Origin: an uncultured Nitrososphaeraceae archaeon
Lineage (GTDB): Archaea; Thermoproteota; Nitrososphaeria; Nitrososphaerales; Nitrososphaeraceae
Reading direction: 5' to 3'
Assembly: GCA_963765895.1 (NCBI GenBank)
Contig: CAVXZB010000023.1
Span: 64,001-128,000, forward strand
Length of the DNA stretch: 64,000 nucleotides
This document shows positions 1,896-20,188 of this stretch, in pieces (position 1 is the first letter of the stretch; each line of letters starts with the position of its first letter). The notes beneath the pieces were generated by a model that was given only the letters and a program-made list of their open reading frames with translations, was not told the DNA's origin and ran no database searches. The position numbers and the translations under genes are program-made.

Positions 1896-1990
1896 TAGCC
1901 CGGCCCAGATTCGAACTGGGGTCAAAGGCTCCAAAGGCCTCTATGCTTGGCCACTACATTCAGCGGTCTCTAAAATACCACTACCGGGCT
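1896..1990 (-). tRNA. tRNA-Gln(TTG) with ~22-nt non-canonical intron in the D-arm (~1957-1978)
   Basis: Minus strand reads AGCCCGG TA GTG[GTATTTTAGAGACCGCTGAATG]TAGTGGCCAAGCAT A GAGGC CTTTGGA GCCTT TGAC CCCAG TTCGAAT CTGGG CCGGGCT A. Removing 22 nt gives a canonical 73-nt archaeal tRNA-Gln. Confidence 0.92.
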
Positions 1991-8766: not shown

Positions 8767-8840
8767 TGGGACCGGCCGGATTCGAACCAGCGATCTCCAG
8801 CGCCCGAGGCTGGCATCATACCAAGCTAGACAACGGCCCC
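8767..8840 (-). tRNA. tRNA-Pro(CGG)
   Basis: GGGGCCG...CCAGC CT CGG GC GCTGG...GGTTCGAATCC...CGGTCCC A; intronless, with TTTATAA ~26-32 nt upstream. Confidence 0.95.
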
Positions 8841-12689: not shown

Positions 12690-12710
12690 AAAATTAAAGA
12701 AAAAAAATTA
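12690..12710 (-). terminator. Oligo-T terminator downstream of the poly-His gene
   Basis: Minus-strand T-tract ~40 nt after the stop codon. Confidence 0.5.
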
Positions 12711-12746
12711 GGCTATTATGCCTTGTTTGTTATCGAGTTTTTACCT

Positions 12747-12980
12747 CTAGTGGCGATGGTGGTGGTGGTAATGATGGTGGTGGTGATGATGATGGTGGTG
12801 GTGATGATGATGGTGGTGGTGGTGATGATGATGGTGGTGGTGGTGGTGGTGATGATGATGGTCGTGATGACCCCCAGCAAATGCCTCATTGCTTACAATA
12901 GGTGCTATCGCAAGCAAAGATAGCGCAATCGCTAGTACGCCTACCCCAATGATTAATGACGTCTGTTTTGTAAACATCAT
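12747..12980 (-). CDS. Secreted poly-histidine peptide: signal peptide + GGHHD-H30-YHHHHRH
   Basis: Basic N-region, hydrophobic core, A-F-A cleavage motif; has its own TATA box and T-tract; both CAT and CAC codons used. Confidence 0.8.
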   Translation of the reverse strand: MMFTKQTSLIIGVGVLAIALSLLAIAPIVSNEAFAGGHHDHHHHHHHHHHHHHHHHHHHHHHHHHHHHHHYHHHHRH

Positions 12981-13000: not shown

Positions 13001-13028
13001 TATATAAAAGGACTGATAGAAATTTCTA
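13001..13028 (-). promoter_or_regulatory. TATA box (TTTTATATA, 13001-13009) plus perfect 12-bp palindrome TAGAAATTTCTA (13017-13028) upstream of the poly-His gene
   Basis: TATA ends ~20 nt upstream of the ATG (leaderless geometry); palindrome read directly. Confidence 0.6.
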
Positions 13029-13218: not shown

Positions 13219-14256
13219 TTATGTACCTACACATCTCAATTTGCTTAGGAGTAAGTGCCTGAACCTCGAGCCGTTGACATAAAATGCGATCAGTACCTGT
13301 CCTGCCGAGTCCTTTTTAAATATAGATAACCCACGTTCACTTCCTTCATCGGTCAAAATTTCCACTTCTCCTTTAACGAACCTAAAAAGTGAAGGCTCTT
13401 CTAGCATGAATACGGCTATTACATCGTGCAAATATAGAACGGTATTTCGTTCTAGTTTGTAATCAAGCAATGATGATAGGAATTTTGAAGCTTCAGAGGG
13501 GGATCTGCCATGGCCATTAGTATTACAAATTCTTTTCACTAAATCCTTATTTATTGAACACTTAGGATTCTGAGTGAGATTAAGTCCAACAATCCTTATC
13601 ATGAATCGATGTTTAGCATTTAGGACTATTTTAGCCGCCTCAGGGTCAGAATAAAAATTGAATTCTACAGATCTCTTTATATCTCCAGTTGATTTTCCAG
13701 TTTCACGATATGAACCTCCCATTATTGAGATTTCTTTGATCCTCTGCTGAGATTTACCTTCTTTCATTACCATCGTTGCAATGTTAGTTAGAGGGCCAGT
13801 AGCTATGATTGAAATATTCTCATCCGGATACTTTTGTAAAATAAATTCAATGAAGTCCGAATAATTGTGTGTTCCCTTTAGAGCATCAGGAGTGATTCTA
13901 TTCCAGAGTTCGTTCATCTTTTTATCGTCGAGAACCAGATTACCTAATCCTCGCCTTCCGTGGCTTACTTCTCTTCCTATTTTCATTTTAGAGGACTGTG
14001 AGCGGTTCCTTAAGGATCTTCTTGCACCTTGGAATACAGGAATATTCAGCCTATTCTCAATTTCAAGCGCCTTCAAAACATTCGACATGCCAATATTAGG
14101 ATTGACGTTGCCATTTACGGTACTAATGCCAACGACACAGATATTACTTGACCTCAAAGCCACTAAAATGGCAATGACGTCATCGATACCTGAATCTACA
14201 TCTAAAATGACTCTTCTAAGCAAATCCTCAATTCTATAAACACAGTGTAGTAGCAT
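13219..14256 (-). CDS. Inosine-uridine-preferring nucleoside hydrolase (start uncertain, 14223-14376)
   Basis: ILDVDSGIDD, ATGPLTNIA, IMGGS, EFNFYSDPEAA, LHDVIA. Confidence 0.92.
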   Translation of the reverse strand: MLLHCVYRIEDLLRRVILDVDSGIDDVIAILVALRSSNICVVGISTVNGNVNPNIGMSNVLKALEIENRLNIPVFQGARRSLRNRSQSSKMKIGREVSHGRRGLGNLVLDDKKMNELWNRITPDALKGTHNYSDFIEFILQKYPDENISIIATGPLTNIATMVMKEGKSQQRIKEISIMGGSYRETGKSTGDIKRSVEFNFYSDPEAAKIVLNAKHRFMIRIVGLNLTQNPKCSINKDLVKRICNTNGHGRSPSEASKFLSSLLDYKLERNTVLYLHDVIAVFMLEEPSLFRFVKGEVEILTDEGSERGLSIFKKDSAGQVLIAFYVNGSRFRHLLLSKLRCVGT

Positions 14257-15029
14257 AATATTTTTTGCATAATTTGCAACAAGGCAGTTCCAAGTATAAA
14301 TTGCAATAATATTGCAAACATGAAGATAATAGTAAATTATATTAAATATAATACTGGATTTTAGGAGCTGTACCAAATGGAATATGAATAATTGCTACCA
14401 GGCAGTACATTCGCGCTTTTGCCGAATAATGATCTAATGATTTCATAAACTCAAATAATTCCATTTCTTAATCTGGTACTCTAGCAATGCAGCTATACCG
14501 AATTAGTAACCTAAGATGTAGTGCTTATAACCCATCCTAGCAGAATCTGGTAATTTTCAGTTTAGTTCACTTCCCTTTCCAATTGTAAATATCCAATCAG
14601 AATATCTAAATGATATGACTTTAATTATACGTAGCACTTTATAGTGAGAATCTTGAGTTAGCGGCAAATTCGTTTAATTTATCTTTACCTCAATTGATAA
14701 CTAAATTAATCCATTAATGATAGCTAACCATTTTCCCTTGACTTCTTGCACTCCTTATGTCCTATGCTCATCCACTTATGGTAATGCTAGCTTTGTATTC
14801 TTTTACAGTAAATATTGTAAAATTACATTAGAAAGCTCAGCACTAATAAAAGGTTGATTATTTCGCTCGTCTGGCGTTTCAAGAGCCATTCCGAATTTAT
14901 AAAGCCAATTGTCTGCCTCTTCTATCTAATATGAATTTCAGAGATCTACAACCAAAGCATTCCTATAGCTATAACATCAGAAAAAAGAAATATTAACATA
15001 AAGTATCGCAATTCTTGCCTCCTTTACAA

Positions 15030-16928: not shown

Positions 16929-18424
16929 CTATATCCCAGGAACAAATGGTGGTCTATTGATATTAATCGGCGAATCCTGATGGTGGTGAAGTTTCAAAGT
17001 CTGATGTGATTTAACAGGTGTCGTGGAGATTATAGCTACGGATTGTGTCATTGCATCGTGATGGTTGACAACGTTGAACATGCCCATCCATCCTAGGTTG
17101 GTAAATTCAGTAGTATGGGCGTGAAACATATACATTCCAGGTTTAGTATAGTTAAATTCAACTATCCCCCTATCTCCCTGTGCTAGTTCAACGATATCGG
17201 TTCTATAAGTAGGATTTAGCCCGGTGCCGGCAGGATAATATTCGAACATATTTCCATGCAAGTGAAAATTATTCATGGGATCAAATTCAAGCATGTTGAC
17301 CAAGTAAATTCTATACTGCTGTCCTGTCGCCAGCTGTATTGGATAGTCATTATAGATAAATGCAGGACCGTTCACGCTGTATATCTGATTTCCTGGTCCT
17401 GAACCCTCATCTGATGCAGTTGCTTTCTCAAAATTTGTGCGCAAAGCAGAGGCCGTTGGAGGTTGTTGTTCTGTAGGCTGAAGCGTTAGGACTATAATCG
17501 TCTTTCAGGTTATAGCCATTCATTAGCATCACCATCTCTCTTGCTGGAGACCTAGGCACCTTTGGATCGATTATCATGGCACCATATAGTCCATGATTAA
17601 TATGCGATTGCACAGGCGCCACATGACAATGGTAAGGATATACACCATACGGGTCAGCTGTGAATGTATAAGTGTAGTGTCCTCCAGGTGGTATAGTGCC
17701 GGCCATACCGGTTACTCCATCCATCATCCCGGAATGAATCGAATGCATATGTAACGAGTGAGGATGAAGAGACGATTTCGAATTATAAACTGTGATCTTT
17801 ACTAGATCTCCTTGAGTCATTCTCATCGTTGGGCCCGGAATTGTATTGTTGAAAGTCCATGCATTATACAGTACCTGGGTCAGTTTTGTTATCAGTAATT
17901 GGAAGAACATTGTTCTCGCTAACTACCAGTGAGAACTCTCTTAATGTAGTACCGTTTTGTAACTTGGTAACGTGTCCACAATTAAAGTATGTCAAGTATT
18001 CAACAGGATTTGGTCTCTCACTAAGATTGGTGGCACAGTTTTTTCCAATTGGTACAGACATCATAGATGGGTTTGACGTAATCGGACTTGTCGCCACTAT
18101 TGGGTGTGTAGGGACTTGCGTTTCATCGTGCGGTGTGTCTGCATTGTCTTTCATTTGCAAATTTTCATTATTAGAATCAGCTGTATTGGATGCAACGGTC
18201 TTACCACTATCATTATTTTCTCCCTTATCGTGATGAGACTTTGCATACAGATTGATAGAATTTGGACTGCCATACGTTATTGTGGAAAGGACTAGGAGGC
18301 CTATAACGGCGATTAGAAAGTAGCTTTGAACAGTAAGTCTTCTGGTATTCAAAAAAAATGTACTACGAAAAAAAGTCATGTCCCTGCTCCGAATTATAGT
18401 TTCTAAATAATCTGAAATTGGCAT
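16929..18424 (-). CDS. Exported two-domain multicopper oxidase (type-1 Cu ligands in domain 1); split by two frameshifts (~17875, ~17480)
   Basis: N-terminal TM/signal, WTFNNTIPGPTMR, HSLHMH, YHCH...HINHGLYG, NFHLHG, MFHAH. Confidence 0.9.
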
Positions 18425-19789: not shown

Positions 19790-20188
19790 GTGGCATCGAA
19801 GACTCTTCTAAAAAAGAATAGAAAGGATGGCGCTATAATAGTATCAACATTTCCAGAGCCCCGCATATTTTCAGCTGTAGCCAGAAATTTGATTGTGGAT
19901 AAACACCTGTGTGCATGCATAAACGTGATTAAAATTGACTCGCTTTATCATTGGAAAGGCAAGCTGGAAATTCATGAAGAGTACCTGGCTCTATTCAAGT
20001 CAACACGCAAAAGAGTACCTGCTCTCATACATGAAATAGAAAAAATTCATCCATATGAGGTTCCTGAAATTATAGAGCTGAAAACTAACAGATTCTCTAA
20101 GGCGTACCTCTCTTGGTTAGATAGCGAAACGTCTGACTATCCCGACACACTCCAAGAAGATAATGAGAAAAAATCTGGCAAGAAATAA
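19790..20188 (+). CDS. cutA: Divalent-cation tolerance protein CutA
   Basis: LCACIN, SLYHWKG, HPYEVPEII, YLSWL. Confidence 0.93.
   Translation: MASKTLLKKNRKDGAIIVSTFPEPRIFSAVARNLIVDKHLCACINVIKIDSLYHWKGKLEIHEEYLALFKSTRKRVPALIHEIEKIHPYEVPEIIELKTNRFSKAYLSWLDSETSDYPDTLQEDNEKKSGKK

Follow-up and report, generated by a model that had tools for sequence, protein, structure and literature searches.

A conserved family of predicted exported, histidine-rich micropeptides in Nitrososphaeraceae archaea, with a poly-histidine member as a candidate metal binder

Hpn and Hpn-like of Helicobacter pylori are small His-rich proteins that bind Ni, and Ni binding to fragments of Hpn-like is reportedly the subject of one paper. 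The histatins of human saliva are secreted His-rich peptides that carry an ATCUN N-terminus and have metal-dependent activity. Poly-His peptides, as well as peptides that join an ATCUN site to a His tag, are described in PMC9472272 as binding Cu(II) and Zn(II), and the same account presents the secreted pHpG peptides of snakes as probable metal chelators or buffers. SilE is portrayed in PMC5008109 as a disordered periplasmic sponge in which metals are bound via His and Met. In ammonia-oxidizing archaea (AOA), enzymes are heavily reliant on copper, as outlined in PMC7785015. The copper enzymes of AOA are loaded outside the cytoplasm, and how copper and other metals are captured, stored and buffered at the cell surface is largely unknown. 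The papers searched yielded nothing on exported poly-His peptides in ammonia-oxidizing or other archaea, with the proviso that the supplementary gene lists of PMC7785015 could still hold some. Here we describe a gene for a predicted peptide of this kind in a Nitrososphaeraceae archaeon, together with the family to which it belongs.

The window is a stretch of 64,000 nucleotides from an uncultured archaeon whose genome assembly (4.9 Mb, 88 contigs, 88% complete) carries archaeal amoA. On its minus strand, positions 12747..12980 hold an ORF of 77 codons plus a TAG stop, with an intact frame that starts at ATG, two ATGs standing in tandem. Its translation is MMFTKQTSLIIGVGVLAIALSLLAIAPIVSNEAFA, followed by GGHHD, 30 His and YHHHHRH. 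Residues 1 to 35 (12876..12980, minus strand) form the predicted Sec signal peptide, with K5 in the n-region, a hydrophobic core, P27 and A33-F-A35. Gly36-Gly37-His38 (12867..12875, minus strand) would provide an ATCUN-type N-terminus if the precursor is cut after A35, and the His tract with its tail (HD, 30 His, YHHHHRH) extends over 12750..12866 of the same strand. The predicted mature part has 42 residues and a mass of about 5.6 kDa; it contains no Met, and 37 of its residues are His, a count that holds for the tract as assembled. These His residues are encoded by 16 CAT and 21 CAC codons arranged in mixed blocks, and Tandem Repeats Finder reported period 3 and period 18 for the tract.

A TATA-like box, TTTATATA, is located at 13001..13008 (minus strand), 21 to 28 nt upstream of the ATG, a position that suggests a leaderless or near-leaderless mRNA, and a T8 run at 12700..12707 (minus strand), 39 nt past the stop, may serve as an archaeal termination signal. 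The three genome orthologues considered below have the same box, with the flank differing by 1 base in L010. Most paralogues have A-T-rich boxes at a comparable distance upstream, and most family members have T5 to T8 runs 35 to 70 nt past the stop. The upstream neighbor on the same strand, a nucleoside hydrolase gene (13219-14376), ends 239 nt from the ORF, and the downstream same-strand ORF starts about 870 nt off, with a DUF790 protein encoded far downstream; given these gaps, a monocistronic unit is plausible. The first-pass annotation had described a monocistronic ORF, 77 residues in length, with its own TATA box and T-tract, a mature peptide GGHHD-H30-YHHHHRH containing 37 His, and a tract that uses both CAT and CAC, and this description was found to be correct in every detail checked. 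An ORF of 66 residues on the plus strand (12723..12923), antisense to the His tract and composed of poly-Met/Val, was rejected as a gene because the substitution pattern fits the minus-strand frame; it is a mirror artifact of the CAT/CAC run. Elsewhere in the window, Rfam models identified two tRNA genes, at 8767-8840 and, as a partial match, at 1904-1960 (minus strand).

The same ORF was found in syntenic context in three congeneric genomes (G001, G002 and G004), and further orthologues were found on metagenome contigs. Compared with G002, the 5' part of the ORF and its promoter were 87% identical, and the flanking genes were 70 to 73% identical. A degenerate DNA pattern spanning the c-region and Gly-Gly retrieved 22 soil metagenome contigs, 10 of this type (AFA followed by GGH and poly-His) and 12 of a sister type (AFA followed by GGD and a His/Lys/Asp-rich tail), with the ORF intact in 22 of 22. 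A word-based protein search with residues 1 to 40 gave only 2 relatives, and a contig scan with a poly-His pattern led to at least one confirmed locus, in a soil Nitrososphaeraceae MAG. Among 14 orthologous alleles, 25 of the 36 codons through His38 varied, 16 of them synonymously only and 9 with conservative changes, and from codon 19 onward the sole amino acid change was E/D32. The tract after GGH behaved differently: it ranged from 10 to 40 codons, its length and CAT/CAC pattern differed in every one of the 14 alleles, and non-His codons occurred only in its first two and last few positions. These alleles show purifying selection on the predicted signal peptide and cleavage site. Judged by its sequence evolution, the ORF at 12747-12980 is a real conserved gene.

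That the tract might instead be a nonfunctional CAY microsatellite in a chance open frame is suggested by (CAY)12 tracts without a signal peptide elsewhere in the order and by the absence of the exact ORF among the 15 billion predicted proteins of one collection. A control search across the order found (CAY)12 tracts in 27 of 401 genomes, with 30 loci returned, three of them near-duplicates. Only in the C12 paralogue of the window's own genome, in L098 and in L101 was such a tract joined to a signal peptide; L093 consisted of the tract by itself at the end of a contig, and the other loci were plain repeats in short frames. The microsatellite reading is very improbable, however, in view of the synonymous-dominated conservation of the signal peptide, the synteny, the 22 intact metagenome frames, and the promoter and T-run elements that the gene has in common with its paralogues.

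Tract length itself is to be read with the quality of the assemblies in mind. Three family tracts in relatives lie at contig ends (L011 at the start of G001:C69, L043 at the start of G002:C131, and L093 at the start of G001:C35), which indicates that short-read assemblies break inside them and that tract lengths in MAGs are uncertain. The sole amoA match in the window's genome (G000:C24:168102-168652) spans three frames, that is, it has two frameshifts about 70 nt apart, which reflect either assembly indels or a broken gene. Moreover, a multicopper oxidase gene within the window (16929-18424, minus strand) is split by a frameshift over adjacent overlapping ORFs, which again points to indel errors or pseudogenes in the assembly.

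Export of the product through a Sec-type signal peptide is well supported at the level of prediction. The positively charged n-region is followed by hydrophobic residues 8 to 29, as in Sec signal peptides, and A33-F-A35 supplies the small residues at -3 and -1 that signal peptidase I recognizes. In an alignment of 32 family members, A35 was invariant, and A33, P27 (at -9 of the predicted cleavage site) and A24 were each present in at least 90%. In a wider set of 91 relatives, in which the cleavage column was set by profile alignment and two of the aligned proteins were rows of the profile's own alignment, Ala occupied -1 in 88 of 91, and -3 was Ala in 73 and Val in 10. The signal peptide ending in A-x-A that had been proposed at the outset is thus borne out across the family, and a cut after Ala35 is likely. 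AlphaFold predicted a single helix over residues 5 to 24 (pLDDT 87 in the block of residues 11 to 20) and modeled the remainder of the chain as coil without a fold (pLDDT 56 to 64). This helix, together with a hydrophobic stretch whose length of about 22 residues suffices to cross a membrane, would also suit an uncleaved N-terminal anchor that holds the His tail outward as a surface antenna for metals or protons, with no free GGH. Yet nothing would require an anchor to retain small residues at -1 and -3, and these stand at a fixed distance after the helix in the proportions given above as well as in all paralogues; we therefore regard an uncleaved anchor as improbable and take a cleaved, exported peptide as the working model.

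The gene at 12747-12980 is not alone in its genome, which holds at least 8 clear paralogues. A rule-based census of the same genome gave 13 matches, one of which resembled the tail of a membrane protein, leaving about a dozen exported (as predicted) His-rich small ORFs. The predicted mature starts differ among them: GGH in the gene at 12747-12980; GGD and SGD in paralogues rich in His, Lys and Asp; HSD in two paralogues; DGH and YKH in others; and, in one, GPG, after which come CPKC, 18 His and another pair of Cys. The closest paralogues of the GGH gene have GGD or GGK instead. When 1.84 billion proteins were searched with a profile built from the 32-member alignment, 90 cluster representatives matched at an E value of ≤0.001, and 9 of these also at ≤1e-10. 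The representatives are mostly small, with a median mature length of about 45 residues and with 60 residues or fewer in 63 of 88, and they share a similar signal peptide that is followed by His combined with Tyr, Ser, Lys, Asp, Trp, Phe or Cys. Ten representatives that were looked up were all unnamed or labeled "hypothetical protein," and one cluster member bore the label Nitrososphaeraceae archaeon. When 121 Nitrososphaeraceae genomes were searched with the profile at an E value of ≤1e-6, 30 were positive; the congeners all matched (6 of 6), as did 8 of 11 genomes in a second genus and 6 of 14 in a third. In some cases the match may be due mostly to the signal peptide. The number of matches per genome was 9 in the window's own genome, 1 to 16 in the congeners and 4 to 9 in the positive members of the genus with 8 of 11. 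The exact sequences of 8 of 9 other family ORFs were, like that of the poly-His ORF, absent from the 15-billion-protein collection; with 9 of 10 missing, most copies have seemingly never been called as genes.

The first-pass annotation recognized no described family for the peptide, and the family-level searches agree with it. Pfam gave no match at the gathering cutoff (DUF6095 reached 17.9 bits against 23.8, and DUF2946 reached 16.9 against 23.7), NCBIfam gave nothing near its cutoffs, and the ESM Atlas gave no usable match. One source attached the label RcnB to a member of the cluster that contains a His/Lys-rich paralogue; when that protein and its relatives were scanned against Pfam with E values of up to 1, no RcnB family was listed, and NCBIfam gave only matches far below the cutoff. 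Since there is neither a family model nor a predicted fold, function has to be read from composition and context.

Several relatives depart from the simple plan of signal peptide and short His-rich tail. A longer architecture opens with a signal peptide of this kind and a His-rich segment, which are followed by repeated Gln/Asn-rich modules with paired Cys; it was seen at G000:C78:5614-5898, at L017:1372-1644 and 1865-2320, and in the metagenome proteins P0001, P0036, P0073 and P0075, and the C78 copy from the window's own genome contains SQSLAQANSCGNGFGASHVNC. Another copy in that genome, G000:C64:62601-62750 (minus strand), is His-rich with a Cys pair and has an in-frame TGA within the signal peptide, so that it is either a pseudogene or the product of a sequencing error. 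The metagenome protein P0059 contains a cupredoxin of the plastocyanin/azurin type (PF00127, 33 bits against a cutoff of 21), and its predicted exported, His/Lys-rich N-terminal extension is a weak match to the family profile.

Composition points to a metal-ligand role. Histidine makes up 28.6% of mature residues across the 88 representatives, Asp and Tyr are frequent, and Cys is sometimes present; paralogues and relatives bear additional CxxC, Asp-rich or Cys-rich stretches. Net fixed charge, by comparison, runs from -22 to +15. With charge so variable and His constant, the shared feature would be residues that serve as metal ligands rather than charge. Indeed, a His/Asp/Tyr/Cys composition with a wide charge range fits a metal-ligand role better than a positive-charge role. 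We infer metal binding from this composition, and the explanation that we favor, to which we assign a probability of roughly 0.5, is that the peptide binds or buffers divalent metals (Cu, Ni, Zn) outside the cytoplasm by means of its His residues.

The same composition could serve other ends. The His side chain has a pKa near 6, and the computed charge of the peptide rises from +3 at pH 7 to +28 at pH 5.5; poly-His might therefore take up the protons that ammonia oxidation releases or that acid soil contains, as a proton buffer, or might protect the envelope under acid stress in the manner of Asr, which PMC10746267 describes as an exported, intrinsically disordered, acid-induced chaperone. The His/Lys-rich paralogues would accord with such a role, whereas a net charge of -3 or below in 13 of 88 representatives and two or more Cys in 17 of 88 are better explained by metal ligands than by a polycation, and no acid-response gene was adjacent at any of the nine loci inspected. 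On this evidence acid buffering is unlikely. The family also shows the pattern of secreted peptide arsenals, namely, a conserved signal peptide joined to a fast-diversifying mature part in many paralogues (the 9 and the 1 to 16 profile matches reported above), with mature parts in flavors of His plus Tyr, Lys, Ser, Trp or Phe. Antimicrobial peptides that combine an ATCUN site with a His-rich sequence are known from animals, and a secreted His-rich polycation, possibly potentiated by metal and directed against soil bacteria or fungi, is conceivable. Pure poly-His, however, lacks amphipathic character and has almost no charge at neutral pH, some family members are net negative, and the nine loci have no adjacent genes for immunity, export or processing. 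An antimicrobial function therefore seems improbable, and the metal binder or buffer is retained as the best explanation.

Whether the ATCUN motif is central to that function was addressed with a count of His at each mature position, taken over the 88 proteins that have Ala at -1 (3 of the 91 were dropped). The motif itself is present in the poly-His peptide, with His at position 3 and no Pro at position 2, assuming cleavage after A35, and GGH occurred in 14 of 14 orthologous alleles. Because the search pattern had fixed Gly-Gly, only residue 38 is a free observation in that count, and it was His in all 14. In the wider family, His was found at position 1 in 7%, at position 2 in 1%, at position 3 in 32%, at position 4 in 52% and at later positions in 40 to 53%, and the first His fell at position 3 in 27 representatives and at position 4 in 28. 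Position 3 is thus not enriched in His over later positions, and ATCUN as the core of the family was rejected. X-X-His occurs in only 28 of 88 representatives, so that the ATCUN site may be incidental. The first-pass proposal of an ATCUN cap accordingly stood for the orthologues and fell for the family, in which paralogues start with HSD, SGD, GGD or GPG. Its proposed check, on conservation of A-x-A followed by GGH and variation in His length, had a positive outcome among the orthologues, which keep AFA followed by GGH in 14 of 14 with tracts of 10 to 40 codons. Taken as sequence, the GGH cap is a stable trait of this orthologue group and not the family core. His was also nearly excluded from mature positions 1 (6 of 88) and 2 (1 of 88), where Gly, Tyr, Asp and Ser were found instead.

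Genomic context was uninformative for function. Among 103 ORFs around nine loci of the family, there was no shared neighbor, and no efflux or resistance operon was present around any of the nine. Genes related to metals were scattered near paralogues: one paralogue has a CDF gene at a distance of 4 kb, another a DtxR-type repressor gene at 2 kb, and two have ArsR genes at 5 to 6 kb. In the window, the multicopper oxidase gene (in pieces) and a CutA1 gene (19790-20188) lie 4 to 7 kb from the ORF; as clues to a metal role, these two and the cupredoxin match of P0059 are weak hints. The upstream regions of the family had no shared operator, having in common only the A-T-rich box about 30 nt before the start. 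A promoter motif associated with copper limitation in N. viennensis is described in PMC7785015; with up to 3 mismatches allowed, none of 14 His-peptide genes had it in the 250 nt upstream, a result to be read with the caveat that the motif may not hold in this genus. A few matches with 4 mismatches are about what chance would give, by rough extrapolation from the 266 genome-wide matches with ≤3 mismatches. HSD-type paralogues have an element of about 23 nt, resembling GCAGTACATTCGTCGAATATACT, about 95 nt upstream of the start at five loci in four genomes (L006, L013, L042, L046 and L057), and this element could be a regulator site.

These results bear on the first-pass proposal of a peptide metallophore, which they do not support: neither uptake genes nor metal genes recur consistently next to the family loci, and the copper-limitation motif is missing upstream. 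A recyclable metallophore is possible, with nothing specific in its favor. A more elaborate version, in which soil AOA would secrete the family as a repertoire of unmodified, ribosomally made poly-His peptides that serve as metallophore and shared extracellular copper store, with GGH capturing Cu(II), His pairs relaying it, the loaded peptide feeding the ammonia oxidation enzymes at the cell surface and slippage tuning the capacity of each strain, is quite unlikely.

In the favored explanation, that of a metal binder or buffer outside the cytoplasm, the precursor would be exported via its Sec-type signal peptide and cut after Ala35. The 42-residue product would then offer many imidazole sites, enough to hold about one metal ion per 3 to 4 His, and in this orthologue group the GGH tip would add a single ATCUN-type site with tight binding of Cu(II) or Ni(II). 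The peptide would be located between the membrane and the S-layer, or would escape into the biofilm or soil water. In either place it would take up metal in excess and serve as a local reserve in scarcity, like a periplasmic "metal sponge," and slippage in the tract would alter its capacity while keeping the frame. The family thereby offers a concrete and easily synthesized candidate for a metal role at the cell surface, since it is multicopy, conserved, predicted to be exported and nearly pure in His. It also suggests that long homo-His runs can be selected in a prokaryote as the product itself and not as a tag or linker. Whether the peptides are metal buffers, pH buffers or weapons, any one of these roles would make them a new player in the ecology of soil nitrifiers.

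With respect to the described systems, Hpn, SilE/PcoE, the pHpG peptides, Asr and the histatins are best viewed as analogues by composition and not as relatives. Hpn resembles the archaeal peptide in its small size, its very high His content with runs, and a His close to the N-terminus with which an ATCUN-type site can form; it differs in being bacterial, cytoplasmic and without a signal peptide, whereas the archaeal peptides are predicted to be exported and are multicopy, and family-model scans (Pfam and NCBIfam) revealed no sequence relationship to it. The histatins are likewise secreted and His-rich with an ATCUN N-terminus, but they are eukaryotic and antifungal, and their sequence is mixed and cationic rather than a homopolymer. 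The pHpG peptides, as presented in PMC9472272, come close in being secreted and short, with an X-X-His N-terminus that leads into a His run, one form having ATCUN plus His6; in that account, however, they are animal products released from a larger precursor, with 6 to 9 His before a poly-Gly tail, and no homology to the archaeal peptide is apparent. Asr, as characterized in PMC10746267, shares a signal peptide, small size, disorder and a His/Lys-rich composition like that of the His/Lys-rich paralogues, yet it is there an acid-induced chaperone or aggregase for the outer membrane. It has no long His run, and archaea are without an outer membrane.

A parallel in proposed role is that with SilE/PcoE, which, as depicted in PMC5008109, are exported, are disordered when free, bind several metal ions via His and have been proposed to be a first-line extracytoplasmic buffer. 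In the archaeal peptide a signal peptide is predicted, and the mature part is modeled as coil (pLDDT as given above). According to the same source, SilE/PcoE carry ten fixed His together with Met motifs, become folded once Ag or Cu is bound, and are encoded in sil/pco resistance operons, whereas the archaeal peptide has no mature Met, a near-pure His run and no conserved metal operon. Together, these comparisons suggest that what is new among His-rich metal-binding peptides is the combination found here, in which the putative binder is predicted to be exported, archaeal, multicopy and nearly homopolymeric.
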